64,000 bases of DNA. Origin: Desulfobulbaceae bacterium (GTDB lineage Bacteria > Desulfobacterota > Desulfobulbia > Desulfobulbales > SURF-16). Every line of letters begins with the position of its first letter. Position 1 is the stretch's first letter. The stretch spans positions 4,204-68,203 of the forward strand of contig JAHLLM010000006.1 of NCBI GenBank assembly GCA_020444175.1, in the 5' to 3' direction. Positions 14,390 through 48,220 of this stretch are shown piece by piece. The translations under genes and the position numbers were made by a program. A model generated the notes under the pieces. The model searched no databases. It saw only the letters and a program-made list of their open reading frames with translations, and was not told the DNA's origin.

Positions 14390-16105
14390 TTAGTCTGCAT
14401 CTAGTTCCGTAGAGAAGGAAGTCCAAACCGGTACATGATCAGAATACCCGTCTAAGTAGGTGCCTATATTTTCTGGTTTATATACAGTTGTGCTTTTTTT
14501 AATTAATTCCAAAGTATTTTCAGGACGCAACATTATGTGATCGATGAGTGAGGCAAAATTGCCGATCAAATAAGAAACATCGTTGGAACCGGCGGAGAGT
14601 CTGGTTTTCCATGTTTGAGTGAAAAAACGCCCTTTGCGATATATAGAATCGATAGAATCGTCCGTAGCCTCGGCGTTAAAGTCTCCGATTAGAATGATAT
14701 CTTGTTCTCCGGATTCTGAAATGAGATTATCGATGGCATCCAGTAGTTCACGTGCTTGCTTGGTGCGCACATAATCGGAGTCATCTCCTCCTTTTTGTGA
14801 TTTGAGATGCACAGCAACAACCCAAAAGTCGAATTCACCTGCTTTGAATTTAGCGGCCAATGGCTTGCGTAAATAACCAGTACTACTTGAACTTTCAAGT
14901 TCTCGAGCTTCCGAAAGAAGTGCAACTTCATCAGCATCGTAGGCGATTACTATGTTCTGCTTGCCTCCGGACTCGCCGGGAAGAAATACATAACCATCGT
15001 CTTCCATATATCGTTTGAGCCATTTATATTGCTGGTCCGATATTTTTCGCTCTTTATCATCATATATAAATGTTCCATTCATGCTTGTGTTGACTTCTTC
15101 AAACGCTACAATCTCTATGTCTAGGGCTTCTGTCACAAAATCTGCAATCCGTTTTACATCATCTTCTTCACGCAACTCCTGACGATAACGCATTTCACTC
15201 CCCAACCAATAAAGGTTGTAAGTCCCAACTTCTATTTTTGACGGAATTTCAGCTTCAGCTTCTTCAGCTTCGACCGATTCGAATAGAGGGCTCGGCGAGT
15301 CCGTGGTTCCCCAAATAGCCGCAACGAATTCTGGGCGATCTATAAAAGGGTTCCGGTTATGTTGATATGCTTCATAAATTAGATCGTTACGCCGACGTTC
15401 GTCGTCGTCAACTGGGTCATCTTCGTGCCATTGTAAGATCTGTGAGCGTATTCCAAGAACAGGATCCTTGTCCGAGTGGTGTTGACCCGTTTCAACTAAT
15501 TCAAGATCTGGTACTCCATTATCACCTTCGTAACGCGTGGCCATATAAAGAACCATACGTGCTACATCTCCTTTAGCCGCATCCCTCGGCTCCCAGGTCC
15601 AGACATTATTACCTTTTTTACATTCTGTATGACCCTTATAGTTTCCATGTGTGTCTTCAAACAGTTCGCCTCCCTCAGCAAAGGAACGGTTATTGCGATT
15701 GCTATTAGTCGAAACGTCAGAAGCACGTAGATGATGCAGATCAGTTCCTGCACCTTTACTTGTCCCAAAATTTCCGAAGGATTTCGGCCAAACATGTTCT
15801 CGATTCCAACCTTTTCCATCATCATATTTTTTGGCAGCATCCATTTTGAAGTTACTATAAATACCAATAACCATATCTGGATTATCAGGATCCCGATCCA
15901 ATATTTTTAGGGCTTCATAAGCCTGTGAATAACTCAATTCTTCATGGTCATCGATGATCTCGTGTAGTACTTGTTTTAATGTTTCGCCGACTTTTCCTTC
16001 TGCAGAGCTGTAGTAACCAACTGGCGGCTCGGCAAAGGCCAAAACTTTTAAATGAAATAGAAAAGCAACAGTCATACAAATTGAAATTCTCTTGAATAGA
16101 ACCAT
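14390..16105 (-). CDS. secreted bifunctional nuclease: Endonuclease I domain plus endonuclease/exonuclease/phosphatase (EEP) domain
   Basis: GGAGGG precedes ATG at 16105, followed by a signal-like MVLFKRISICMTVAFLFHLKVLAFA. Endonuclease-I motifs are NREHVWPKS, DLHHLRASD and NRNPFID. The C-terminal EEP signatures are VGTYNLYW, EEVN, LIGDFN and YSDHVPV. Confidence 0.85.
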   Translation of the reverse strand: MVLFKRISICMTVAFLFHLKVLAFAEPPVGYYSSAEGKVGETLKQVLHEIIDDHEELSYSQAYEALKILDRDPDNPDMVIGIYSNFKMDAAKKYDDGKGWNREHVWPKSFGNFGTSKGAGTDLHHLRASDVSTNSNRNNRSFAEGGELFEDTHGNYKGHTECKKGNNVWTWEPRDAAKGDVARMVLYMATRYEGDNGVPDLELVETGQHHSDKDPVLGIRSQILQWHEDDPVDDDERRRNDLIYEAYQHNRNPFIDRPEFVAAIWGTTDSPSPLFESVEAEEAEAEIPSKIEVGTYNLYWLGSEMRYRQELREEDDVKRIADFVTEALDIEIVAFEEVNTSMNGTFIYDDKERKISDQQYKWLKRYMEDDGYVFLPGESGGKQNIVIAYDADEVALLSEARELESSSSTGYLRKPLAAKFKAGEFDFWVVAVHLKSQKGGDDSDYVRTKQARELLDAIDNLISESGEQDIILIGDFNAEATDDSIDSIYRKGRFFTQTWKTRLSAGSNDVSYLIGNFASLIDHIMLRPENTLELIKKSTTVYKPENIGTYLDGYSDHVPVWTSFSTELDAD

Positions 16106-16324
16106 AATCCCTCCGTATCTATATTTGATAAAATCTACAACAACCTTAAGGTCCATTTCCTGTCTCAATTTCCATCCATTTAATTTTCTACGGCAGCAAA
16201 CTCATTTATTGGGATGAAGTCCTCATATGTGCCAAATTGCCACATTTGCATCCATGCACACAAATGAAATACTTCTATTTGACAGGATTATCAATGATGA
16301 AATAAAAAAATGAGGGAGGTGAAG

Positions 16325-16453
16325 ATGAAAAAATATATCTTGGTCGTTTGTCTTATGTGCTTATGTGGCTTTATGGTTCCCGAACAGCCAGAAGCGGCCA
16401 TCATCCCGACAGAAGAGTATGGCCTTATTCTTTATGATGATGTGAAATTGTAA
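16325..16453 (+). CDS. possible 42-aa signal-peptide-bearing small protein
   Basis: GAGGGAGG lies upstream of the ATG. The product is MKKYILVVCLMCLCGFMVPEQPEAAIIPTEEYGLILYDDVKL. It is too short for the ORF track and is unsupported otherwise. Confidence 0.25.
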   Translation: MKKYILVVCLMCLCGFMVPEQPEAAIIPTEEYGLILYDDVKL

Positions 16454-16583
16454 TCATCACCCGCTTTGCTCTTCAAAAAAAATCATCATGACCTTCTGAA
16501 TCGTTTCCTCTGTTATATTCGTACCAGGAAAACCTTTAGTTAAGTGAATCGTTAAATGCTTGAGATTGGTAACACCAAGATAA

Positions 16584-16635
16584 AGATTTTTCCTAATTCT
16601 GTTTCAAATCTTGAGCCGTAGATACAGTAGACTCT
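16584..16635 (+). repeat. non-coding repeat E, copy 1
   Basis: agatttttcctaattctgtttcaaatcttgagccgtagatacagtagactct aligns with 48545-48593. It lies immediately 3' of the helicase stop. Confidence 0.7.
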
Positions 16636-16636
16636 G

Positions 16637-18844
16637 TTACCCAGAGTGATGATTGACTATCGACTCAACCAACTTCTTCGCGCCATTAGAATTCAGAAAT
16701 TTGGACGCATAGTCGATGGTTAGAAGTTCCTCCGCCAAAAAGTGGTCATATTTTTCGGTTATTTTGTTACGAACACGGCTGGCAAGGTATTTTTCGTCTG
16801 ATATGCCAGAGGCAAGGATTTCTTCCAATATGTTGAACACTTCCTCTTCGCTTTTGTTCTCAATTGAAAGGACGAAATTGCTCTTTTCGACACGAAATCC
16901 TTCGTTCATCAATTGGAGCAACAGGGTGTAGATGCTTTGGTCGCCATCCCAGCAAAACAGCAGCACATCCTCGCCAGCCTGGACCACCGAGCGCCTTGCA
17001 AGACCCATCGAGTGAAAGTTCTGGCGACCTTCCAAAAGAAGTTTTCTTGACTTTGCATCAAGGAACGAGAATTGGTCTGCCCCAGAGTAAATATCTAGCA
17101 TGGCTGATCGTATGCGCTTATGGACACGTGCCCCATGGCCCCCGAACATAGGCGGTTTGCCAGCTTTTGTAGGGGTGAGTTCTATGACTTTACGTTGGCT
17201 ATCTACCGCTACCACAACCCAGCGTCTTCCTGCGAATATTAGATAGCTTCCCTCTGTTACAGGGTATTCGATGGGAAGGCTCCCAAGCGTTTTGTTGCCC
17301 GAAATCAACTTGTATTCTTCTGGAGTTTTGAACGCCGAAAAGAACTCGTAATGGTTCACTATCCGCTCGCCTTTATCTCCAAGAAATAAGGTTCCGTCAG
17401 AGGCTTGAGAAATGAGGTCTTCGGCTGCTATCGCCCGCAGGAGGTCACCATAGGTAGCTTGTGTGATTTTGTCGAAAGATCCGCCTTTGCAGAGAAGTTT
17501 CCAGAGTGGTAGAGGGCGGCCCCCGCCACGCTCTGCCAGTACTGAGAGGGTTTGCTGAACGAGGGTTGAAAAGTCGAGCGCATCCGCCTGCGGCGGTTCA
17601 TACCATTTCTCTAAAAGCAACTGAACCATCGCAATCGACTGAAAAAGCTGGGCTCTTAGCCTGTCGATGACAGAACTTTTCGGCGTCAGTTTCTCTTCCC
17701 TGACGTATAGCCGCATTATGCCAGCCTCGCCAGCCCTTCTGCCGGAGCGCCCTAAGCGCTGGCGCAGGGCTGCAACGGAGGGAGGGGAGTCCAACTGGGC
17801 AATGCTAGAAACATTGCCCACATCGATGCCAAGTTCTAATGTGTTTGTACAGACGATAGAAGTCGGGCGGCTTTTGTCCTTCAGACGGATTTCGGCTTCT
17901 TCCCGAATCTCTTTCGATAAGCTGCCGTGGTGAGGGAGAAATTCATTTGGAACACGGTCATCTTCAGAAAGCCTTCTGAGGATGTCGGCGCATATTTCAA
18001 CATCTCGACGGCGGTTGGCGAAGATAAGGTTGTCCGAGCCCCGCAACACCTTAAATATGTGTGCGCAGATGTCTTTCAGGTTCCCATCGCCGACATCCTC
18101 ATTTTGACCGTTAAGCTGTGCTTCATCGCCAGAGACAACGCAGCCCCTTATTTGGAGGCGTATCTCCTGGGCGTCGTCATCGGATTGGATCTGTTTTACG
18201 AAAGGTCCCCCTTTGGGACGCATGAACTCAGCAGCAAGTCCCATGTCGCCCAGGGTGGCGCTGAGTCCGATTCGAGGGATACTTCGCCCGGTTGCCACCT
18301 CTGTCCTGTGGAGGAGAGATTGGAGTTGCCGGCCACGTACGCTGCCGATAAAAGAGTGCAGCTCATCAATCACTACGTGAGAAAGACTGCCGAACAAGCG
18401 TCCGATCTGGTGACCTCTGATTACGAACAATGCCTCCAGCGATTCGGGGGTGATGATCAGAATTCCTGAGGGTTTCTTTAGGACTTTGTGTTTTCTGTTT
18501 TGGGCTACGTCACCATGCCATTTGTGTACGGCTATCTTCAGCCCTTCGCACATCTGCTCGATGCGCCGGAATTGATCGTTTATCAGCGCCTTCAAGGGGC
18601 TCACACAAAGAACGTCTATCCCGGTTGAAGACTTGTCAACCAGCTGGGAACATAGCGGAAGGAAGACAGCCTCCGTCTTTCCACCGGCTGTCGCCGCGCT
18701 GATAATCAGATCACCTCTACCGCACAGGACGAAGCGGATGGCTTCCTCCTGGATGTAGTGCAGTTCCTCCCATCCCTCACGCCAGATCCACTTGCGGACC
18801 TTCTCGTGGAGGAGATCAAAAGAGCTGGAGCTATCTTCAGTCAT
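16637..18844 (-). CDS. sngC: Shango-type DEAD/DEAH (Lhr-like) helicase
   Basis: 735-aa ORF with helicase motifs AATAGGKTEA (I), VIDELH (II), SATLGD (III) and QRLGRSGRR (VI). It starts 6 nt after the preceding ATPase gene ends. Confidence 0.8.
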   Translation of the reverse strand: MTEDSSSSFDLLHEKVRKWIWREGWEELHYIQEEAIRFVLCGRGDLIISAATAGGKTEAVFLPLCSQLVDKSSTGIDVLCVSPLKALINDQFRRIEQMCEGLKIAVHKWHGDVAQNRKHKVLKKPSGILIITPESLEALFVIRGHQIGRLFGSLSHVVIDELHSFIGSVRGRQLQSLLHRTEVATGRSIPRIGLSATLGDMGLAAEFMRPKGGPFVKQIQSDDDAQEIRLQIRGCVVSGDEAQLNGQNEDVGDGNLKDICAHIFKVLRGSDNLIFANRRRDVEICADILRRLSEDDRVPNEFLPHHGSLSKEIREEAEIRLKDKSRPTSIVCTNTLELGIDVGNVSSIAQLDSPPSVAALRQRLGRSGRRAGEAGIMRLYVREEKLTPKSSVIDRLRAQLFQSIAMVQLLLEKWYEPPQADALDFSTLVQQTLSVLAERGGGRPLPLWKLLCKGGSFDKITQATYGDLLRAIAAEDLISQASDGTLFLGDKGERIVNHYEFFSAFKTPEEYKLISGNKTLGSLPIEYPVTEGSYLIFAGRRWVVVAVDSQRKVIELTPTKAGKPPMFGGHGARVHKRIRSAMLDIYSGADQFSFLDAKSRKLLLEGRQNFHSMGLARRSVVQAGEDVLLFCWDGDQSIYTLLLQLMNEGFRVEKSNFVLSIENKSEEEVFNILEEILASGISDEKYLASRVRNKITEKYDHFLAEELLTIDYASKFLNSNGAKKLVESIVNHHSG

Positions 18845-18850
18845 CTTGCC

Positions 18851-20167
18851 TTATAGCGTGAAAGAAGTGAGTTCGTCGTCCTCATCTCCTTCATCCTCCA
18901 TCCCTAATAAAGTGCTGGGATCGATGTCGGCTTTGAATTCGAGACCCCCCAGATGGTTCTCCCATCTTTGGTCTGGATGCTGAAGCAAAATCACGAGCAG
19001 GTCCAAGAAATATTTGGCAAAGTTCCTTGGTGTAGCGAAGTGAGAGGCCCCAACCTTGTTGTAGCAATAGTCCATAAAGGCTTGAATCCCTTGGTCGCTT
19101 ATAAGCTCTCTACCCGAATCCGCCGAGGCGACAACGATTCTTAACTTTTGAAGGAGGACGAAGGTCTCTTCTTTAGACAAAGTCGTAAGACGGATCACTG
19201 GGCCGCTCATATCCACAAGCCCGTTTTTAGCGAAAGAATTCTCCGCAAGCCTCGATTGGAGGGCTTCATAGCTGAAGAGACCTCTTCGGGTATCTGTGAG
19301 AAACTCAGGTGTGCCTCCCATCAGGAACCCCAGGCCCTCGGTAGAGCCCTGCAGGCAGTCGTTCAGGATGCGCAGAATCTGTTCGTAGTTGGCATTGCGG
19401 GACTGGGTATGGGAAAGCTTGTAAAGGTTGACCATCTCATCGAGGCAGACTAGCAATCCATCGTAACCTGCGAGTTTGACAAATCGTGCCATAAGTTTCA
19501 GGTAATCATAGAAACCAGCGTCATCGACAAAAGTGCGCACACCTAAAGCTGCCCTGGCGTCTGTTTTGGTTGTAAACTCACCCCGTAGCCACCGCACGGC
19601 ATCAGCCTTCAACTGATCGTTACCGGTGTCATGACCACGCCAGTATGCCCCGATAACATCTGCAAAATCGTAACCACCCACCATCTCGGATAGCTTCTCC
19701 AACCGTTCAGCGATTACTACACCAGGATTGGTTCCATTTGCCTTGGCTTCACCTAAGGCCGAAGAAACGAATCGCTCCACCACTGAAGCCAAGGCATTGC
19801 CTTCCGGCTTGGTGCGAGTAGACATGTTGCGCATCAACTCAGCGAAAAGGCTACGCGCCTGCCCGCCCGTACCATGTAGCCGTCTATTCGGATCAAGGTC
19901 AGCATGTGCTGTCACGAGTTTTTTGTGTAATGCGACTGTACGGACAAGTGAGAGGAAAAAGCTTTTCCCCGAGCCGTAGTCTCCGATTATCAGGCGGATT
20001 CCGGAGCCGCCATCTATGATTCTGTTGATATCGTTTATAAGAGCTTCTATCTCTCGAACACGTCCCACCTGTACGTGTTGCTGGCCAATTCTAGGCACCA
20101 CGCCGGCACGCAAAGATTGTATGATAGCGTCTCTCTCTTTTGGTCTAATCTTCGTTGCGTTGCTCAT
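18851..20167 (-). CDS. sngB: Shango-type P-loop ATPase (DUF2791-like)
   Basis: Walker A is GDYGSGKSFF and Walker B-like is LLVCLDEM. The start was moved to the ATG at 20167-20165, which overlaps the upstream TGA (ATGA). The longer ORF-track start would overlap sngA by 61 nt. Confidence 0.8.
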   Translation of the reverse strand: MSNATKIRPKERDAIIQSLRAGVVPRIGQQHVQVGRVREIEALINDINRIIDGGSGIRLIIGDYGSGKSFFLSLVRTVALHKKLVTAHADLDPNRRLHGTGGQARSLFAELMRNMSTRTKPEGNALASVVERFVSSALGEAKANGTNPGVVIAERLEKLSEMVGGYDFADVIGAYWRGHDTGNDQLKADAVRWLRGEFTTKTDARAALGVRTFVDDAGFYDYLKLMARFVKLAGYDGLLVCLDEMVNLYKLSHTQSRNANYEQILRILNDCLQGSTEGLGFLMGGTPEFLTDTRRGLFSYEALQSRLAENSFAKNGLVDMSGPVIRLTTLSKEETFVLLQKLRIVVASADSGRELISDQGIQAFMDYCYNKVGASHFATPRNFAKYFLDLLVILLQHPDQRWENHLGGLEFKADIDPSTLLGMEDEGDEDDELTSFTL

Positions 20168-22425
20168 GCTGTCATCTCTCCCAGAACCGCGTGGTCCACT
20201 TCTATTGGATCTTCCCCCTCGCATAGAGGCATATCTGCGATTTCAAATGCCGCTTCGTTTATCATTTCAATGGCACCATCCAACATCAGCCCCAATTCGT
20301 CCACCAAACTCTCCAGTTCCTGGCGCGCCCAGGATGTTTGCTCTTTCAGCCGTTTTAGAAGTGTTGAATGTGCGTGATCCAATCCGGCAACAGTATCTCC
20401 AGTCTCAACTATTGTATGAACTGGGATTGTCTCTTCTTCCTCTGAGAAAATGTCACTAAGTAGCGTGGACACAGCAGCGGTCTCGGCCAAAGTACTTTGA
20501 ATCCTCTCCATATCCAGCGTGACTGCAGCCTGAGGCGGTTGCTGCTTCTGATGGGGGATTTTGTATCCTTGTGGTACGGTGCTGGCGGTACGTACTGTAA
20601 TAGGTTCAGAGGCAGCGGGAGAAGCTATGCTCATGGATGAATGGAGTTGGCTGTGAAGAGCCGTCTCGGGAAAGCCGAGCATATTGTACATTTTGTTCAA
20701 CACCTTGATTTCTTTAGGATCTACCTTCCCATCAGCGCAAGCTACCGAAACCAAGAAGCGACCTACCTCAATCCGCTGATGTTCGCCAATTCCCTCAAGT
20801 TTTTTCTTCACCCCCGCAAAACCAGGCTGAGCGACAAGAAGCCACTTAATATGAGCACGAAGTCTCACTCGCTCAGTAGAAGAAAGGTGAAGAGAAGACT
20901 CCAAATGCTCTTCCATGCGCTGCTTTTCTTCTTCGTCTATGTGACCGTCAGCGCCGGATACCATTGCAGCCAAGTGCAATACAAGCATTGCCGCTGAATA
21001 CTCTCGGCTGGGAGACGAGATTTTTTCCCCTTCCATGCGGAATAAGAGCACCTTGTCGCTTTCTGAAAGAGACTTGCCGCCAAATCGAACATCGGGTTCC
21101 AACCCATAATTCCACCGTTCAAGCAACTGCGCGAACTGCACGGTTTCTTTTTTTGTAAGTTTGCCGGGATTATTTGATGGCCAGAAGTGCAGCAGATCGG
21201 TAGCATCCAATATTGATTCATTGGATTCAGATAGCGTTCGCTGAAGTAACGCCTTCAACTCTCCAGCTTTGGCGCCTGATGTTTCCCCAGCCAATTCATC
21301 CGGCACGAGAGAAAGGGCTGCTAACGATCCTCTGGAATCTGGATTTCTCCCTAAATAACGGCTGTAGGCGTCAAGATCGTCACAGCAGGCGTAAGCAATT
21401 TCTAGAAATTTGTTCAATGGGCGAACTACCTTCGAGACATCCGGAAGGTCAAGTTCATGACTCCAGCCAGTCCCACTGAAGGAGCCACTTGCCGGACGAT
21501 AATCGAGAGTCAGGAGGCTTTTGTTGGGTTTTATCTTTATCCCTTCGCCATACTTTGCCTGATAGCGGATCTTGAACAGTTTTGCGAACTCTTCTGGGCA
21601 ACGTTGTGCTGGTGTCCTAAGTCTTGTCTCTGGGTGCATCTCCATCCAAGCGAAAGCCCAATCAGCCGGTATCGGCCTGCCATCTTTAACAATTTGCCCA
21701 AGGCCGGCTTTCAAGGCAAAGGGCAAATCCCATCCATGTTTTTCCAGGGGCAGCGGAGCACTATCGAGAGTTTGGGAGATATACTCGTTTGCTCGGCAAA
21801 ACGATAGAAAGTTTCCGGCGTAATTGCGGAAAGACCCTCTATTGCCATAAATGGAAAGCAGTCGTTCAACTTCGGAGAGGATCGCAGGTACGTTAGAGGC
21901 TGCACCTGGTGAGCGTTTAGCATCGGCAAGGACTCTTCGTTCAAGCCCGTAAAAATAGAGAAAGACGTATCCAATGTCCGCCTGGGGATCGGATTTTCCG
22001 TTAGCAAGCCAAGATAGATAGGCAGCGCGCGCATCCGGTGAGATGTTAGAGTAAGAAGGCCAGTAATCGGTAAGTCGCTCGCTGAGGTCGGGGCAATTGC
22101 TGGCAATTTTTAGTTGCGGATTTATCAGTGCAGGTTCAATGTTGTAGTTACTACTTACACTCGGCAAGTTTTTGCCGACATAGAGCATCCCTCCCGGAAT
22201 GACATACTGTTCAACCTTAACCTCTTGTCCAGGAGGCACCCAAAGATTGTCCGGATTAGCAGGGTTCTTTATTCCATCCCATGCTTTTTCGTCTGAATAT
22301 GAGACATGAATCTCAAAATCTTCTGCTGTGATTTTAGGTTTTTGCGAAGTCCCGGCAATGAACTTTATGATCTTGTAAATAATGTAAATGAACACTAAAA
22401 GCCAGAAGATATCGGCCATCTGCAA
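20164..22425 (-). CDS. sngA: Shango-type TerB-domain protein (N-terminal TM helix, TerB-N-like, TerB and TerB-C-like regions)
   Basis: 753-aa ORF with N-terminal TM segment IFWLLVFIYIIYKIIKFIAG. TerB-like helices carry acidic motifs (LAAMVSGADGHIDEEEKQRMEEHL, VACADGKVDPKEIKVLNKMY). Gene order TerB-ATPase-helicase. Confidence 0.8.
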   Translation of the reverse strand: MQMADIFWLLVFIYIIYKIIKFIAGTSQKPKITAEDFEIHVSYSDEKAWDGIKNPANPDNLWVPPGQEVKVEQYVIPGGMLYVGKNLPSVSSNYNIEPALINPQLKIASNCPDLSERLTDYWPSYSNISPDARAAYLSWLANGKSDPQADIGYVFLYFYGLERRVLADAKRSPGAASNVPAILSEVERLLSIYGNRGSFRNYAGNFLSFCRANEYISQTLDSAPLPLEKHGWDLPFALKAGLGQIVKDGRPIPADWAFAWMEMHPETRLRTPAQRCPEEFAKLFKIRYQAKYGEGIKIKPNKSLLTLDYRPASGSFSGTGWSHELDLPDVSKVVRPLNKFLEIAYACCDDLDAYSRYLGRNPDSRGSLAALSLVPDELAGETSGAKAGELKALLQRTLSESNESILDATDLLHFWPSNNPGKLTKKETVQFAQLLERWNYGLEPDVRFGGKSLSESDKVLLFRMEGEKISSPSREYSAAMLVLHLAAMVSGADGHIDEEEKQRMEEHLESSLHLSSTERVRLRAHIKWLLVAQPGFAGVKKKLEGIGEHQRIEVGRFLVSVACADGKVDPKEIKVLNKMYNMLGFPETALHSQLHSSMSIASPAASEPITVRTASTVPQGYKIPHQKQQPPQAAVTLDMERIQSTLAETAAVSTLLSDIFSEEEETIPVHTIVETGDTVAGLDHAHSTLLKRLKEQTSWARQELESLVDELGLMLDGAIEMINEAAFEIADMPLCEGEDPIEVDHAVLGEMTA

Positions 22426-34509: not shown

Positions 34510-35088
34510 ATGAGCGTGAAAATTTACCAGATGATTACCGACAAAGTTTTGGAGCTTTTAGAGGCTGGGGTCATTCCTTGGGCAAAATCATGGACAGGAG
34601 CTGAACCCCAGAACGTAATTACCGGGCGGGAGTACAGGGGCATTAATGCTTTTCTTTTGGGCTGCACAGGTGCTACCCCTTACTGGTTGACATTTAACCA
34701 GGTGAAAAAGGCCGGTGGTATAGTTAAGAAGGGCGCAAAATCAATGCCTGTTATTTTCTGGAAGTGGTTGGAGAAGGAAGACCAGGAAACCGGAGAAAAA
34801 CAGAGTCACCCAATTTTAAGATATTACCGTGTTTTTAATCTCCATGATGTTGAAGGAATAGAGGCCCCGGAGGTTATCAAGCACGAAGAAGGCGAAAAGC
34901 CTGTTCCATTGTTTCAATGTGCCGCAATTATCGCCAATATGCCTCATCCGCCTGCACTGTATCATGGCAGCGCAAAGCCCTTTTATCGTCCTTGTGAGGA
35001 TGCGGTTTATATGCCTGATTTTGAAAATTTTATAAGTGCAGAAGAATATTACAGTGTGGCTTTTCATGAATTTGGCCATTATGCCTGA
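34510..35088 (+). pseudogene. ardC: ArdC-like anti-restriction protein, 5' part (interrupted)
   Basis: N-terminal ssDNA-binding-domain signatures (IPWAKSW, REYRGINAFLL, WLTFNQVKKAGG, RYYRVFN). The reading frame ends at AFHEFGHYA*, inside the HExxH motif, where the RIT inverted repeat begins. Confidence 0.8.
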
Positions 35089-35264
35089 CTTCGGATTATG
35101 CCGAGCTAATACTCTAAACTGCGCAAAAATGTTGGGTGGCTGGTATGTTTTTCGGCATAATCAAAGTGCTCCTCGGGCATCCACAAGTTGTAAGCCAAAT
35201 TTAGATTGAAAAACTCTGTCGTGAGTCCCATTCATAAGAATTTCACCTAAAACAAGGAGGACTT

Positions 35265-36515
35265 ATGACATCGGGAAAAAAATTTGGCAACACAACCACA
35301 CAAAAAGTAGAGTGGCTGGCACCTCATCGACAAATATTCATAGAAAAGCTCAAGGCACAGGGCTACGTGCTCTGTTCAATTCGCCATTATGATAGGATAG
35401 TCCGCCGATTCTGCGAGGAGATTGAACAACGCGGGCTCAGCGCCAAAGATCTTGATGGATCTGCTTTAGAAGCCATTCATGAGGCAGTATTGAGCAAAAC
35501 AGGTAAAAGCATTCACACCTATACTATGTTTTGCTTAAAGCGATTCATCAATCATCTTATTGATACTGGAATTGTCGTCCTTCCAGAGCCACAAGCTAAG
35601 GAATTGACAGCCATGGACCATCTGCGTGAGGACTATGAAACATACTTACGCAAGCAGCGTGGATTGAGTGAATCTACAATTTATCATTGCATGCGTTTTC
35701 TAGAAAGATTCATGAGTTTCCGCTTTGGTGATGTGTTAGGAGACCTGAACTCCATTACAGCGGCTGATGTTGTATCCTTCCTGTGTCAGCGCATGGCCGG
35801 TTCACAGCCTTATCGTGACAAAACACCTCCAACACATCTACGAAATTTGTTTAAGTTCCTGTTCTGGAGTGGAAAGACCAAGCGTAATTTGGCTCAAAGC
35901 ATTCCGCGTGTCGCTCAACCCAAGCACGATAATCTGCCCCGCTATCTGAAGCCGGAAGAAGTTCAACAATTACTTGAAGCGGTCCGAACAAATGATGCGA
36001 TCGGCCGCCGCAACTATGCAATGTTGCTACTGCTTGCCCGCCTTGGACTACGTGCGCCAGAGGTCATCGCAATTCAGCTCGATGATATCGACTGGCGGTC
36101 TGGTGAAATTTTGATTCGTGGCAAGGGTAAATTGCATGATCGTATGCCTCTTGTAACCGATGTTGGTGAAGCCATAGTTGATTACATCACAGACGGGCGG
36201 GTAGGAACTTCTCGTACCTTGTTTGTCACCAGTAAGGCACCTTACCATCCTTTTAAGGACGCCCAGATTCTGAACTATATCCTGAAAAAGGCACTTGTAA
36301 AAACGAAGATCAAACCGCCGCAGAAATATATTGGTTCTCATATTCTTCGCCACAGCCTTGCTACTGACATGCTTCGTCAGGGAGCTACACTTGGTGAGAT
36401 AGGTATAATACTGCGACATCGATCTCGAATGACAACAACGATCTATGCCAAGCATGATATCGATTCATTGCGAGCAATTGCCCAGACCTGGCCAAAGCAG
36501 GGAGGTGCTCAATGA
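35265..36515 (+). CDS. tyrosine recombinase, first gene of the trio
   Basis: 416 aa with LGLRAPEVIAIQLDDIDW, HILRHSLATDM and LRHRSRMTTTIYAK. The stop overlaps the next start (ATGA). Confidence 0.85.
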   Translation: MTSGKKFGNTTTQKVEWLAPHRQIFIEKLKAQGYVLCSIRHYDRIVRRFCEEIEQRGLSAKDLDGSALEAIHEAVLSKTGKSIHTYTMFCLKRFINHLIDTGIVVLPEPQAKELTAMDHLREDYETYLRKQRGLSESTIYHCMRFLERFMSFRFGDVLGDLNSITAADVVSFLCQRMAGSQPYRDKTPPTHLRNLFKFLFWSGKTKRNLAQSIPRVAQPKHDNLPRYLKPEEVQQLLEAVRTNDAIGRRNYAMLLLLARLGLRAPEVIAIQLDDIDWRSGEILIRGKGKLHDRMPLVTDVGEAIVDYITDGRVGTSRTLFVTSKAPYHPFKDAQILNYILKKALVKTKIKPPQKYIGSHILRHSLATDMLRQGATLGEIGIILRHRSRMTTTIYAKHDIDSLRAIAQTWPKQGGAQ

Positions 36516-37459
36516 CATCACTTACCACTCACCTCGAAAATTATCTCAATGTTCGGCGTAACCTTGGCTATGATCTCTCTACAGCAGAACGAGTATTACG
36601 AAGATTTACTTGTTTTGTGGATGATCAGGGTGCTGACCATATCACCGTCGATATGTTTCTACGATGGAAAGAACAATTTGGGTCAGCGAATAACAATACC
36701 TGGTCCAGACGTCTTGGGATGGTACGTTTATTTGCTGCCTGGCTCCAAGGCATTGATCCCCGCAATGAGGTACCACCCGTTGGGCTGATATCGGGAAAAA
36801 ATCATCGGCCACGGCCCTATATCTACACTCCTGAACAGATAGCAAATATTGTTTCTGCAGCAGCCAAGCTTCCTTCACCCTACGGGCTGCGGGGAAAGAC
36901 CTGTTCAACGATGTTCGGGTTGATAGCAGTCACTGGATTGCGTGTCAGCGAAGCGATCGGGCTTGACGAAAAGGATGTAGATCTCGATAACGCTGTTCTC
37001 ACCGTCAGATGTGGAAAGAACGGTAAATTCCGATTCGTACCTATTTCGTCATGTGCTGTAGATCGCCTTGGTGTTTACCGTGCTGAACGGAATAGGCTCC
37101 TTGGCACCGGTAGGTCACCGTTTTTTCTCCATGAGAGTGGTCAGCGCCCCGGAGACTGTAGTGTCAGGTATAACTTTGCACGAATCAGCCAATTCATTGG
37201 CCTTCGTGACCGTCAAGTGTTCCACAAACATGGTCGAGGTCCACGTATACATGATTTGAGGCATACGTTTGCAGCCCGTACGATCATTGACTGGTACAAG
37301 AAAGGGCTTGATCCAGATCGCGAAATGATCAAGCTCAGTACTTATCTGGGACATTCAAAGCCTGAGTACACATACTGGTACATAGAAGCAGTTCCGGAAC
37401 TGTTGCGACTTGCTTCTATGCGGGCAGAAAGATCCATAACTGCAGGGGGTGAGGCATGA
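36512..37459 (+). CDS. tyrosine recombinase, second gene of the trio
   Basis: 315 aa with TGLRVSEAIGLDEKDVDL, HDLRHTFAARTI and LGHSKPEYTYWYIE. There is an ATGA overlap at both ends. Confidence 0.85.
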   Translation: MTSLTTHLENYLNVRRNLGYDLSTAERVLRRFTCFVDDQGADHITVDMFLRWKEQFGSANNNTWSRRLGMVRLFAAWLQGIDPRNEVPPVGLISGKNHRPRPYIYTPEQIANIVSAAAKLPSPYGLRGKTCSTMFGLIAVTGLRVSEAIGLDEKDVDLDNAVLTVRCGKNGKFRFVPISSCAVDRLGVYRAERNRLLGTGRSPFFLHESGQRPGDCSVRYNFARISQFIGLRDRQVFHKHGRGPRIHDLRHTFAARTIIDWYKKGLDPDREMIKLSTYLGHSKPEYTYWYIEAVPELLRLASMRAERSITAGGEA

Positions 37460-38454
37460 AAATTTACTCACTACCCATTTATGTACAGCGGTTCTTCACC
37501 GAACGTCTCGCTACTCAACTAAAAGCCAGCCCAAATACGGTAGCAAGCTACCGAGATGCTTTCCGTCTTTTGCTGAAATACGCATCCGATCAGATTGGAC
37601 GTGCTCCTACCGATCTTCAGGTCGCCGACATAGATACCACTATCGTCGGAGGTTTTCTCGTTTTTATAGAAACCGTACGTGGCAATGGTGCCCGAAGCCG
37701 AAACACGCGACTTGCGGCTATTCGGTCATTTTTTAAGTATGTAGCAGTCAATGAACCTCAGCTCCTGCACCATTGCCAGCGTATCCTCGCTATGCCGTCA
37801 AAGCGGTATAATAAGCGTACGATAGACTATTTAAATCCTGCCGAAATCGATGCACTCCTCGCTGCACCCAATTTGACGACCTGGTACGGTCGCCGTGACC
37901 ACACTCTACTTCTACTTGCCTTACAGACTGGTCTCAGGGTGTCAGAATTAATCAACCTGACATGCGGTGATATCGTTCTGGGAACGGGGGCTCATGTTCG
38001 ATGTATGGGCAAAGGACGGAAAGAACGTTCCACGCCACTCAGAAAAGACTGTGAAGAAGCTCTACGCAATTGGCTAATGGGACATGCTGATGATGATCAA
38101 CCCAAGCCTCTCTTCGTTAGCAATCGTGGAGGACAGCTAAGTCGTGACGCCATTGAGCGTATTGTTCATAAATATGTAAAGTTGGCCTCCAGCGAGTGCG
38201 CGACGCTGAAAGATAAGAGGGTAACACCACATGTACTACGTCACAGTGCAGCAATGCAGCTTCTCCAGAACGGTGTAGATCGCACTGTAATTGCACTTTG
38301 GCTGGGCCACGAATCAGTGGAAACCACTCAGATGTATATCCACGCCAATATGGAAATGAAGGAGCAAGCCATGGCAAAAACGAAACCAGTAACTGCACCT
38401 GCTGGTCGATATAAGCCCAATGACAAGTTACTTGCCTTCCTGGAAGCACTTTGA
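37456..38454 (+). CDS. tyrosine recombinase, third gene of the trio
   Basis: 332 aa with TGLRVSELINLTCGDI, HVLRHSAAMQLL and LGHESVETTQMYIHA. Confidence 0.85.
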   Translation: MKIYSLPIYVQRFFTERLATQLKASPNTVASYRDAFRLLLKYASDQIGRAPTDLQVADIDTTIVGGFLVFIETVRGNGARSRNTRLAAIRSFFKYVAVNEPQLLHHCQRILAMPSKRYNKRTIDYLNPAEIDALLAAPNLTTWYGRRDHTLLLLALQTGLRVSELINLTCGDIVLGTGAHVRCMGKGRKERSTPLRKDCEEALRNWLMGHADDDQPKPLFVSNRGGQLSRDAIERIVHKYVKLASSECATLKDKRVTPHVLRHSAAMQLLQNGVDRTVIALWLGHESVETTQMYIHANMEMKEQAMAKTKPVTAPAGRYKPNDKLLAFLEAL

Positions 38455-38567
38455 TTATGCCGATAACCAAACCGACCAACCGGTACTGCTGGCAGTATCA
38501 ACAGTACCGGCTCGGCATAATCCGAAGTCAGGCATAATGCATGTTATGCCGATATCGGCATAAGGCT

Positions 38568-38852
38568 CATGCAACCGGCCACCAAAGCCGGTTAAGCAGG
38601 GCAGGTGTTATAGATGATATTAATTTTGGCAGTGATAAATACTCTCAAGAAGAGCTTGTGGCGGAAATGACAGCCGGTTTTTTGTGCGGTATTGCCGGGA
38701 TTGACAACAAGACTCTTGAAAACAGCGTTGCCTATATCCAGGGTTGGGTGCAACGTTTCCAGGATAAACCTAAAATGGTTGTTTTAGCTGCTGCCCAGGC
38801 GCAAAAGGCTGCAGACTATATTGTCGGTAATTTTCAGGGAGACGAAGAATAA
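38568..38852 (+). pseudogene. ardC: ArdC-like anti-restriction protein, 3' part
   Basis: The frame reads H-ATGHQSRLSR...FGSDKYSQEELVAEMTAGFLCGIAGI...NSVAYIQGWV...AAAQAQKAADYI. This is the metalloprotease-domain continuation expected after HEFGH. Confidence 0.8.
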
Positions 38853-42153: not shown

Positions 42154-43371
42154 ATGGCTGAGCAAAAACTTGTAGTTTTCATTTATTTGCCCGAAGAGAC
42201 GGTTGCTGTTCCGGCAGGAATTTTTACTCACGATAGTGAGGCAGGAATCGGTTCCTTTGCCTATGGACGGAAGTATCTGGAAAGAAGTAATGCTCTTCCT
42301 GTTGATCCTGTCGCTTTACCTTTGGGTGAAACTCCTGTTTTGGTCAGAAGCAATGGTGGGTTGTATGGCGCATTTCGTGATGCCGCTCCAGATTATTGGG
42401 GCAGGCTTGTTATAGCTGCAGAAGCAAAGCTTGCTCCAGAGGCTCTTTCAGAAATAGATTTTCTTGAGGCAGCTAACGCCACTCGGGTGGGCAACCTTGA
42501 TTTTCGTGACTCGATTGAAACTCCTGAACCTGATCTTGTTCCTCCTCATTTTGACCAGTTGGAGCGGATAATTGCTGTTGCCGGGCAGATTGAAGCAGGG
42601 GAGGAAGCTGAGAGTCATCTTGTTCAGCTCCTCCGTCAGGGAACCAGCATGGGTGGGGCACGTCCCAAATGCACAGTCGAGTGGGATGATGCTTTGTGGA
42701 TTGCCAAATTCCCGGCAAAAGATGATACATTGAATATTTCTTGTATTGAATATGCAACCATGAAGCTTGCGGAAAAATGCGAGATTAATATACCAGAGAT
42801 ACGTCTTGTTCAGGTAGGCGGGAAGGATGTATTTCTTTCGAGGCGATTTGATCGGGGAAAAACAGGAAAGAGGTGGAAGAGAAAAGGCTTTATCAGCTCA
42901 TTGTCGTTTATGCAATGGGATGAGAGTGATCGCTTGCAGTGGGATTATTCAGCTATAGCTGCCAATATGCGACGGTACATGGAACCGGCTTATATTCAAG
43001 AGTTTTTCCGCCGGATGGTATTCAATATTCTTGTGCGCAATACAGATGATCATCCCAGGAATCATGGCATGTTGATTGATGGAGATAAAATGTATCTTTC
43101 TCCAGCTTATGACATAGTTCCTTCAATTACTCGGAAGGGAATCGGAACCAGCTTCAGGCTTGCCATGTCGGTTGGAAGTCAAGGGCGTGAAGCTAATATT
43201 GAAAATGCTCTTAGCCAATCCGCCAGCTTCGGCTTCCCGGCAGAGGATGCAGCTGATGTTGTGGAAAAGATGATAACCGCCATCAACAATTGGCAAGAGT
43301 TATATCGAGAGAGTGGGGTTTCCGAACGCGATCTTGAGGTAATTGCCCCTTCCTTTGGTTTTTGTGACTAA
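42154..43371 (+). CDS. hipA: HipA-family kinase toxin
   Basis: 405 aa with GTSMGGARPKCTV, WIAKFP and RNTDDHPRNHGMLIDG...LSPAYDIVP. Confidence 0.85.
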   Translation: MAEQKLVVFIYLPEETVAVPAGIFTHDSEAGIGSFAYGRKYLERSNALPVDPVALPLGETPVLVRSNGGLYGAFRDAAPDYWGRLVIAAEAKLAPEALSEIDFLEAANATRVGNLDFRDSIETPEPDLVPPHFDQLERIIAVAGQIEAGEEAESHLVQLLRQGTSMGGARPKCTVEWDDALWIAKFPAKDDTLNISCIEYATMKLAEKCEINIPEIRLVQVGGKDVFLSRRFDRGKTGKRWKRKGFISSLSFMQWDESDRLQWDYSAIAANMRRYMEPAYIQEFFRRMVFNILVRNTDDHPRNHGMLIDGDKMYLSPAYDIVPSITRKGIGTSFRLAMSVGSQGREANIENALSQSASFGFPAEDAADVVEKMITAINNWQELYRESGVSERDLEVIAPSFGFCD

Positions 43372-45797: not shown

Positions 45798-46658
45798 ATG
45801 GAACAATATGATATTGGCAAATGGGTCAGTCTTGAAGAAAACCCAGATCACAAAACCCTCAGAGAAGCAATTCATACTGTATTAGTTGCTATATCAACAG
45901 GACATTGGCTTAACTGTAACATGATAATAAAAGGTGGTGTCCTTCTTGCAATTCGCTACGAAAGCGTACGCTTCACTGAAGATATAGATTTCTCAACACG
46001 AATAACTCTAAAAGATTTTGATCAAGATTCTTTTTTAAAAGAACTTGGTCAGAGTTTAGCAACTGCGGTTGAAAAACTAGATTATGGCCTTGATTGCAGA
46101 ATCCAATCGTATCAAATGCAGCCATCTAACAATCCTGAAGCAAGCTTTCCAACTTTTAAATTAAAAATTGGATACGCGTACAAGCATGATTCAAATAGTC
46201 ATAAACGTTTATTGAAAAGACAGTCTTCGAAGGTGTTGAAGCTAGATTACAGCTTGAATGAAGAAACTCAGGATATTGAATCGTTCGAGATTTCCGACGG
46301 AGGGACTCTTTCTGCATATAGTTTATCAGATTTAGTTGCTGAAAAATATAGAGCAATTCTGCAACAAAAAGTAAGGAATCGGGTTAGAAGGCAAGACGCC
46401 TATGATTTATTTGCCTTGATGAAAAAACTTCCTATTACTGATCCTGCCGAAAAGAAACATATACTTGAGACACTCATAAAAAAATCTGCTGCCCGAAACT
46501 TAGAAATAAATTTTGAATCCATTTCAGTTCCGGAAACGTTCAAGAGATCAAAAAATCAATACGAAATGCTTGCCTCTGAAATTGGAGGAGAACTTCCAAA
46601 ATTCGAAGAAGTATATACGTTTGTGGAAGATTTTTACAAGTCCCTCCCCTGGGGGTGA
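45798..46658 (+). CDS. abiEii: nucleotidyltransferase toxin AbiEii/AbiGii (DUF1814) family
   Basis: 286 aa with IKGGVLLAIRYESVRFTEDIDFS, DLVAEKYRAILQQ and RRQDAYDL. Confidence 0.75.
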   Translation: MEQYDIGKWVSLEENPDHKTLREAIHTVLVAISTGHWLNCNMIIKGGVLLAIRYESVRFTEDIDFSTRITLKDFDQDSFLKELGQSLATAVEKLDYGLDCRIQSYQMQPSNNPEASFPTFKLKIGYAYKHDSNSHKRLLKRQSSKVLKLDYSLNEETQDIESFEISDGGTLSAYSLSDLVAEKYRAILQQKVRNRVRRQDAYDLFALMKKLPITDPAEKKHILETLIKKSAARNLEINFESISVPETFKRSKNQYEMLASEIGGELPKFEEVYTFVEDFYKSLPWG

Positions 46659-47305: not shown

Positions 47306-48220
47306 ATGAAAGAGCTCGTTAATTCACATTGGAGTTGGGAAAAATCTGTTTCGGAATACAAGCTTTATATGGATGAGTCCGGACAATATTCCCCTGAGAC
47401 CATTAGAAACAGAGGGTATCTCCTGGGTTCTTTATCTCAATATGCGATAGAAAAGGGTATTCATACTGCTGGGGAAATGTCAAAAAAGTTGCTTCACAAC
47501 TATTTAATGTCAAAAAGGCTCTCAAATAGCTCAAAAAAGATAAGAATTCAAGAATTAGTCAATTTTTGTGATTTTTTGATAGATAATTTCGTTATTCTCG
47601 ATAATCACGCAAGATTGCTGGATATGCCCAAGGTTCCCAAGAAAGTCGTACAGACTTTAACGCGGGAAGAAGTGAAACGTGTTTATGAGCATATTTATAA
47701 AAATAAGCGGGAGGACATTCTCTGTCGTGACCTGGCGCTTTTCAACTTGCTTTTATTTCCTGGTTTGAGGGTCAGTGAGGTGATCAGGATTAAGTTCAAG
47801 GACATTTCGTTTTCCGAGTTGGTTGTCATAGTTAAGAGGAAAGGGGGCAAGGAGCAGAGGTTGCCTATTCAGCAGGAAACAGCTGATCATATTCAGGAGA
47901 TTCGTGAGCATAGGCAGTGTGGCTCAGAAGATTATGTTTTTATTGCCAGTAAAAGTAAGGAGAAACTCACTCAGCGTGGGGCGCAGTATATTGTGAATAC
48001 GTATCTTGAGAAAAAGGCTGGCATTTTGAAGTCTCGTCTCGGACCGCATCTTCTACGTCATACTGGGGCGACCATCATGTTGCAGGAAGGGATGGATATA
48101 AAGAGCCTCCAGGATATTTTGGGTCATGAGGATTTGCAGACGACTATGATTTATTCTCATACTGATCTTGAGACACAGAAGAAAAAGATGCAGCAGATGC
48201 CTGTGTTTGGGAGGGATTAG
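47306..48220 (+). CDS. tyrosine recombinase (XerC/D-like integrase)
   Basis: 304 aa with [30 protein letters not shown] and [15 protein letters not shown]. Confidence 0.85.

Follow-up and report, generated by a model that had tools for sequence, protein, structure and literature searches.

In a Desulfobulbaceae bacterium, on contig JAHLLM010000006.1, a recombinase-in-trio (RIT) element has precisely split a gene of the ArdC type at the codons HEFGH|ATGH of its zincin motif. The element is an intact transposon of 3,491 bp, palindrome included, at positions 35079-38569 of the 64-kb stretch of DNA that was analysed as a whole (the window hereafter), and it very probably entered ardC by site-specific recombination of the tyrosine-recombinase type by way of a circular form. 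The evidence comes from an uninterrupted homologue that carries the empty site, from an identical, circularly permuted copy in the homologous codon of another ardC, and from metagenomic relatives in which the same target and the same polarity recur. RIT elements were named in 2009 (Van Houdt). They include the ritABC units of Cupriavidus metallidurans CH34 and C. necator pHG1 (PMC3414803), and earlier analysis of RITs gave no convincing binding sites and no defined ends (PMC3414803); their target specificity and movement are listed as 'not tested' (PMC10214605 Table 1).

The divided ardC gene and its empty site

The 5' part of ardC (34510-35078, plus strand) encodes the ArdcN domain and the beginning of the zincin domain, ending with the CA of the codon for the second His in HEFGH, while the open reading frame to which it belongs runs on into the insert and terminates at 35088 with AFHEFGHYA*. 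Beyond the insert the ardC frame picks up again at 38568 as HATGHQSRLSR, borrowing the CA of the hexamer that precedes the 3' part (38570-38852, plus strand). Pfam recognises ArdcN (E = 8.7e-30) and positions 14-55 of the MPTase-PolyVal profile in the 5' part, and positions 54-126 of the same profile in the 3' part. The two halves thus meet at positions 55/54, which places the cut at one point of one domain. The frames and the Pfam matches agree with an earlier note on this DNA, according to which joining the flanks restores HEFGHATGH. The order that marks an ArdC protein, an N-terminal ArdcN single-stranded-DNA-binding domain followed by a zincin domain with HExxH, is present across the two halves, and 1,977 homologues of the joined protein have both of these domains (E<=1e-20). 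In their alignment HE..H and the subsequent GH are invariant, the second His is followed by A or S, the first residue of TGH is T or S, and no extra residues occur at the position of the insertion.

The closest uninterrupted homologue (protein P0001, contig L160) is 87% identical in protein sequence and reads AFHEFGHSTGH. Its nucleotide sequence aligns with the joined ardC flanks at 82% identity and without a gap across the join, from which it follows that ardC was once whole. This contig is the uninterrupted allele for which the earlier note had suggested a search, and together with the split Pfam profile it upholds the note's placement of a RIT inside the HExxH motif. The empty site reads CATGAGTT TGGCCA TTCAACTGGGCAT, with TTCAAC directly after the hexamer; a stretch of about 40 bp of ardC that contains the target is GCTTTTCATGAATTTGGCCATGCAACCGGCCACCAA. 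Since the homologue has TGGCCA, the hexamer at 35073-35078 is the target's own and GGCTCA at 38564-38569 came with the element. We also considered GGCTCA as the target hexamer; either hexamer restores HExxH (HELAH or HEFGH), and this choice was dropped because the closest uninterrupted homologue carries TGGCCA. The window's own genome has a single ardC, no second one having been found there.

Anatomy, ends and circular permutation of the element

Three intact tyrosine recombinase genes fill the unit, all on the plus strand and linked by ATGA overlaps at 36512-36515 and 37456-37459: ritA (35265-36515; 416 amino acids, with an extra N-terminal region), ritB (36512-37459; 315 amino acids) and ritC (37456-38454; 332 amino acids). 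The open reading frames and nearly full-length matches to Pfam Phage_integrase bear out the trio as it had been described before; the matches cover residues 227-398 of RitA, which also has a SAM-like domain at 122-201, and residues 125-300 of RitC (E = 4.5e-38), and RitB is likewise matched. NCBIfam holds no Rit-specific model, and all matches to it are to Xer-type models and lie under their cut-offs. The catalytic R...HxxR...H/W...Y residues are kept in all three proteins by inspection of the translations, not by structural alignment (GLRAPE, HILRH and IYAKH in RitA; GLRVSE, HDLRH and TYWYIE in RitB; GLRVSE, HVLRH and QMYIHA in RitC). In RitA about 120 residues with no domain match precede the SAM-like domain, and an internal repeat of RitA (EQRGLS/KQRGLS) is faint and not significant (E = 0.33); RitC ends in a C-terminal tail of about 30 amino acids. 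Described RIT proteins have RH-Y as catalytic residues (PMC3414803 Table 1), two successive core-binding domains in RitA and an extra conserved C-terminal helix in RitC (PMC8138268). As in other RITs, the unit has its genes on one strand in the order long, short, medium (RitA, RitB and RitC of RITs have about 410, 315 and 330 amino acids), with overlaps of 4 bp (4-8 bp in RITs; PMC3414803), a length of about 3.5 kb and terminal inverted repeats that flank ritA and ritC (PMC3414803; PMC10214605 Table 1). In its genes and their order and overlaps, as in its size and inverted repeats, the element is a RIT.

The left terminal inverted repeat (35079-35170) begins directly after the left crossover hexamer TGGCCA and contains three (A)TTATGCCG sites, at 35079-35085 (+), 35096-35102 (+) and 35154-35160 (-); the right one (38445-38537) has its sites at 38455-38461 (+), 38514-38520 (-) and 38531-38537 (-). 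To the right of it follow an internal crossover hexamer, TGCATG (38538-38543, plus strand), which is the spacer of an intact second core, GGCATAA-TGCATG-TTATGCC, then a 20-bp palindrome, TTATGCC-GATATC-GGCATAA (38544-38563), and finally the element-borne hexamer GGCTCA (38564-38569, plus strand). The perfect 30-bp inverted repeat that the earlier note had taken as the bounds of the insert is present (35077-35106 and 38510-38539); it forms the outer end of longer, imperfect repeats of about 94 bp (35077-35170 and 38445-38539), and its outermost CA/TG belongs to the 6-bp crossover regions. The right boundary, however, is 38569, and the palindrome, which had been read correctly, lies inside the element. 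The motif TTATGCCKA occurs six times in the window, always at the two element ends, as against a mean of 1.08 in shuffled sequences, none of which reached six in 100. The clustering of such motifs at the two ends thus stands, with a count of eight TTATGCC heptamers (three per inverted repeat and two in the palindrome) in place of seven.

How far the element extends can be read from its relatives. Among 60 related genomes searched at the DNA level, a single distant relative had ends that could be read (in G011, labelled Candidatus Desulfobia pelagia); there a related trio cuts a tyrosine recombinase gene at HSLRH|SYATH, and its RitB homologue is 44% identical and conserves the motif KLSTYLGH...TYWY. 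Its left junction is CTCT GCGCCA TAATGCC... and its right junction ...GGCATTA TGGCGT TTATGCC GAATTC GGCATAA GCGCCA CAGTTAC. Since this relative keeps a palindrome beyond its right inverted repeat, the palindrome belongs to the element, and since it is flanked by perfect GCGCCA repeats, the direct repeat is 6 bp and not 3 bp. Metagenome contigs were also scanned for the pattern TTATGCCGAWWTCGGCATAA, which lies inside the element, and at least 120 stretches were found; with the loci already in the analysis these make 124 listed occurrences, 79 of which have a recognisable RIT inverted repeat on one side and a readable length on the other. All counts of copies below are among the matches listed. 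One could suppose that the element is bounded by the 30-bp inverted repeats and a 3-bp CAT duplication, with the 28 bp that hold the palindrome being a scar, target DNA or an unrelated insert, since CAT does stand on both sides of the insert and the perfect inverted repeat does end at 38539. The CAT seen at both junctions consists of the CA that is conserved in the 6-bp region and of one base more, so that the observation holds and its reading as a repeat of its own does not. That supposition is barely credible: the palindrome and hexamers are conserved in the 44%-identical relative, in a different target gene, and in the at least 120 metagenome stretches; the palindrome moves with the element to the opposite end in the copy described next; ArdC homologues lack extra residues at this place; and the flanking repeats in relatives are 6 bp.

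The copy in question lies on a contig (L009) of a metagenome-assembled genome labelled Pelobacter sp. UBA5610, where the same trio sits in a different gene of the ArdC type (HEIVHWTGH; MPTase-PolyVal positions 54-126, E = 3.4e-28), in flanks of 55.5% GC content compared with 41.8% in the window. As in the window, its hexamer starts on the third base of the codon that follows HE and ends on the second base of the codon for the second His. The rit genes are reversed and the palindrome lies to the left of ritA: the left side reads ...CCAG TGCACG TTATGCC GATATC GGCATAA GGCTCA TTATGCC TGACTTCGG... and the right side ...GTCA GGCATAA TGCATG ATTTCGTG. When both units are treated as circles and rotated by 26 bp, window positions 35079-38569 and the unit in L009 show 0 differences over 3,491 positions. 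The core GGCATAA-GGCTCA-TTATGCC, which was predicted for the circular form from the window alone, is found internal and intact in L009, and TGCATG, internal in the window, stands there at the junction of element and target. We infer that the window copy would be the circle opened at its GGCTCA core and the L009 copy the same circle opened at its TGCATG core. The search for other copies that had been proposed earlier was thereby answered with an identical, circularly permuted element in the homologous ardC codon. The L009 flank was also looked for in the genome of the window, where it would have shown the empty site a second time, and is absent from it.

Because the two elements are identical and yet their hexamers differ from those of their targets, the hexamer differences are not later mutations. 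In the window TGGCCA of the target remains at the left junction and GGCTCA of the element at the right one; in L009, read in the sense of ardC, it is the left junction that retains the hexamer of the element (CATGCA) and the right one that retains the hexamer of the target (CGTGCA). Across the copies in ArdC genes the outer hexamer ends in CA in 31 of 31 and the inner hexamer begins with TG in 31 of 31, and of 30 complete elements 13 have the same hexamer on the left and on the right, while in the others the two differ at 1-4 positions. Such a pattern would fit the overlap region of a tyrosine recombinase in which CA must match and the other four bases may be heterologous. In an alignment of 28 ends from 14 elements, with proteins about 35-75% identical to those of the window, only three blocks are conserved, at fixed spacing: a terminal T(T/A)ATGCCG, ATTATGCCG, which begins 17 bp inward of it, and TCGGCATAAT in inverted form at a depth of about 75 bp. 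Three blocks in each inverted repeat and the two palindrome arms make eight candidate sites in the junction region; their conservation in relatives speaks for the earlier suggestion that the clustered motifs are good candidates for recombinase binding.

From these observations a mechanism can be proposed. The element would pass through a circular form in which the inverted repeats meet around the palindrome, with the general order IR_R-GGCATAA-N6-TTATGCC-GATATC-GGCATAA-N6-TTATGCC-IR_L, where IR_L and IR_R are the left and right inverted repeats; for the window element the junction would be IR_R-GGCATAA-TGCATG-TTATGCC-GATATC-GGCATAA-GGCTCA-TTATGCC-IR_L. It would thus hold two mirror-image cores of the lox/FRT type about a GATATC centre, each composed of a 7-bp arm, a 6-bp overlap and a 7-bp arm, 26 bp apart. 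One core would recombine with an ardC target of the form CAYGARnT-NNNNCA-(xTGH codons), by strand exchange across the 6-bp overlap, in which the last two bases, CA, would be constant and the other four would tolerate mismatch. After replication or repair each junction would retain the hexamer of either the target or the element. The element may still be able to move.

The palindrome lies beside ritC in 22 copies and beside ritA in 23 (12 to 16 in complete elements). A possible though rather unlikely account of the two orientations is that a single core integrates and that site-specific inversion between the inverted ends follows, as FLP flips the 2-micron plasmid. Integration at the GGCTCA core followed by inversion does yield the L009 arrangement with all three hexamers reproduced, the near 50:50 split of orientations fits frequent flipping, and two copies of one relative (L065 and L084) have hexamers that are swapped and reverse-complemented while rit orientation is the same, for which more than one step is needed under either model. 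This account takes two steps where direct use of the mirror core takes one; moreover, the mirror core agrees with the target hexamer of L009 at 5 of 6 positions (CATGCA and CGTGCA), compared with 3 of 6 for the other core, and the inner core, both arms of which are complete, is kept in all copies, as one would expect if crossover takes place there. A pair of copies with the same flanks (L055 and L125) was considered as a case of inversion in place and rejected: the rit orientation is the same in both, and the target is a multi-copy insertion sequence.

A linear route has been suggested for the RITs of Sphingobium, which would move as hairpin-ended molecules; on such a route the palindrome would represent the replicated tip of a hairpin and not paired crossover arms. 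Mobilome sequencing found exonuclease-protected RIT DNA without circle junctions, and hairpins were proposed on that basis (PMC5737581). Among the readable copies, 24 of 79 have hexamers that are reverse complements of each other and so form a perfect 32-bp palindrome. The hexamers of the window and of L009 are not reverse complements, yet the two elements are exact circular permutations, which a circle explains directly; palindromic symmetry never extends past 16 bp per arm into the target, and the enzymes are simple tyrosine recombinases of the Xer-like kind. We therefore regard hairpin-ended movement as improbable.

Several points weigh against integration through a double-core circle. No circle junction, excision product or inversion was observed, and none of the 124 listed palindromes, all on assembled contigs, has an inverted repeat on both sides; in the mobilome data on other RITs, too, free DNA was protected and the circle junction was not found (PMC5737581). 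Both orientations are explained equally well by one-core integration with inversion in place. No other copy exists in the window's own genome, so the single-copy element gives no sign of activity here. The proportions among the 124 occurrences come from a sample. Finally, the target arms bear no clear resemblance to the heptamers of the element, with at most 3 of 7 bases matching by inspection.

Target, polarity and relatives

The flank on the palindrome side encodes H-x-T-G-H..R-L in 31 of the 79 readable occurrences and in 35 of all 124. These 35 ArdC 3' flanks are all distinct in nucleotide sequence and share the same codon phase, and all ten that were tested begin at MPTase-PolyVal position 54, as in the window. 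The opposite arrangement, with the HExx side adjoining the palindrome, was seen 0 times against these 35, and all 11 complete elements in HExxH targets have the HExx side at the plain inverted-repeat end. Under the double-core circle this polarity would be set by the fixed CA, which aligns core and target in one way only, so that the palindrome arm would join the 3' side of ardC; as the cores are mirror images, the rit genes would lie in either orientation while the palindrome side would always face the ardC 3' part.

It might be objected that there is no real target preference, and that the elements insert widely and survive, or are noticed, only in dispensable genes of mobile elements such as ardC; about half of the oriented copies do lie in unclassified targets. 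We consider this very improbable, as survival alone would scatter insertions along the gene, whereas 35 independent flanks share one codon phase, with 10/10 tested at one Pfam position and a polarity of 35:0, and the search pattern lies inside the element and is unable to select for the target. Copies with the same palindrome also recur in targets other than ArdC: RH|SxAT codons of recombinases (6 copies), H|LLRN (6 copies), NN|QAE and others. The H|LLRN motif we take to be that of an IS256-type transposase, and this group has inverted repeats of its own, from which it follows that target choice goes with lineage. The lineage of the window element would accordingly home to the HExxH codons of ArdC, and sister lineages to conserved codons of recombinases and transposases.

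The order ritA-ritB-ritC is the same in 29 related complete elements. Among the matches listed, the closest metagenome relative (L074, Ga0126381_100064565; RitB 69% identical) has inserted after the second His codon of HEMIH, at HEMIH|AIVGCDQGH, in a gene unlike ArdC, and the recognised feature may thus be wider than ArdC. Four ArdC-targeting relatives (L054, L065, L084 and L088) are 4.3-5.2 kb long, with 1-1.7 kb of DNA beyond the trio, and L065 and L084 are one such extended element in two different ardC genes. On one contig (L130, about position 1554) the palindrome stands between two different ArdC 3' parts in inverted order (HSTGHEKWLNR and HSTGHESRLGR), which suggests recombination between RIT copies in two ardC genes. 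Another contig (L061, 6625-9791, Ga0302147_10001613) has a RIT with a palindrome block on both sides and target flanks, TCAGGAT and ATCCTGA, that mirror each other, and a lone palindrome occurs in the same kind of flank in L042; these may reflect insertion beside the 26-bp footprint of an earlier copy. For 41 of the 124 listed palindromes (for example L045, L051, L090, L109 and L129) there is no recognisable RIT inverted repeat on either side. In L109 and L129 the palindrome is long and perfect, stands at a contig end and has the look of an assembly fold-back; some of the rest may be footprints, or may mark the ends of lineages whose repeats differ.

Relatives are also found on plasmids. A tblastn search with RitB gave matches in 684 plasmid records, mostly alpha- and beta-proteobacterial, and the trio is annotated in every record that was inspected. 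In plasmid pACRY01 of Acidiphilium cryptum JF-5 an entire element lies in ardC (HELGH|ATGH); its GGGGCA repeat is perfect, and its palindrome is the variant TTATGCCGACATCGGCATAA; in Agrobacterium pAt12D1 and Sinorhizobium pSfreGR64b the trio adjoins an ArdC N-terminal part and the far end is lost, and in Novosphingobium pABRDHK21 the palindrome adjoins HWTGH. Where insertions can be placed on a typed replicon, ardC lies on conjugative or mobilizable plasmids, and the element therefore rides on transmissible DNA.

Comparison with known systems and consequences

Unlike published RITs, this element has ends, a 6-bp crossover region, a double core and a preferred target that can be read from its sequence. 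In the searchable literature, outside of which Ricker et al. 2013 lies, a target preference, a crossover region or a double core is undescribed for RITs. The palindrome at one end is shared with earlier accounts, which mention an 'overlapping palindromic sequence' and 'sequence variation at the ends' (PMC3414803), and a double-core circle would account for both. Tn554, SE and GInt resemble the element in having several tyrosine recombinases together and site-specific insertion, and in a 6-bp junction sequence that may differ between the two sides and travel from site to site (PMC10214605, PMC5385486). They differ in having a conserved non-recombinase partner as third or fourth protein (TnpC, Srap, GinD or Tfp), whereas the unit here consists of three recombinase genes only, and in lacking long terminal inverted repeats, which here measure about 94 bp, and a mirror-image double core. 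SEs, moreover, always carry the hexamer of the left flank to the new right side, while here either junction may keep that of the element, as the window and L009 demonstrate.

In the conjugative transposons CTnDOT (with its integrase IntDOT) and Tn916 element and target match only in part across the crossover region with its coupling sequences: a short dinucleotide at one edge is conserved, the remaining bases may differ, and hexamers pass from site to site, as they would here. These are single-integrase elements with Xis-type accessory proteins and arm-type sites, and they are not known to have terminal inverted repeats or to home to the codons of a protein motif. In Cre/loxP and FLP/FRT, inverted arms surround an asymmetric spacer of 6-8 bp that sets polarity, and inverted sites flip the segment between them. 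The RIT described here differs from these in having two cores back to back, six further sites in the inverted repeats, three recombinases and a target without arms.

For ArdC itself, the insertion separates the protease domain from the DNA-binding domain. The split gene encodes a product of 192 amino acids in which the ArdcN single-stranded-DNA-binding domain is whole and the zincin domain is broken. The R388 ArdC mutant E229A, which was designed to kill the protease site, still functions in conjugation into Pseudomonas putida (PMC7213743). As ArdcN is intact and the E229A mutant works, loss of anti-restriction function is not established, and the earlier statement that the insertion inactivates an anti-defence gene goes further than this allows. 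A further frame, MLCRYRHKAH-ATGH..., begins at an ATG to which inner hexamer and palindrome both contribute, and it continues into the C-terminal part of ArdC (38541-38852). An obvious ribosome-binding site is absent from it, and the frame is probably incidental, as the hexamer varies between copies.

The surroundings of ardC form an island of defence and toxin-antitoxin genes. Upstream, positions 14390-22425 hold a row of defence type, with an Endonuclease_I fusion, a DEAD-box helicase, a BrxC/D-like ATPase (18851-20224) and a TerB_N/TerB_C protein, the TerB gene of the island; further genes are those for HipA (42154-43371), AbiEii (45798-46658) and an integrase (47306-48220). No conjugation genes were seen within the window.

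The locus and its relatives supply a mobile unit defined to the base, eight conserved candidate sites, a crossover region of 6 bp in which one dinucleotide is fixed, a double-core junction that would explain the 'variable ends', an ardC target of about 30 bp, and a cultured and non-pathogenic host, Acidiphilium cryptum JF-5, whose pACRY01 has an intact copy in this target. The movement and target choice of RITs, long open, are thereby made directly testable. We speculate, and hold it slightly less probable than its contrary, that RITs in general are parasites that home to other mobile elements, with each lineage reading the DNA of one conserved catalytic motif (HExxH of ArdC, RH|SxAT of recombinases, H|LLRN of IS256-like and NN|QAE of IS66-like elements), by a double-core integration that would need CA only and in which one recombinase would recognise the target and the others bind the arms of the element. 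If this is true, integration could in principle be redirected by swapping the recombinase that reads the target.

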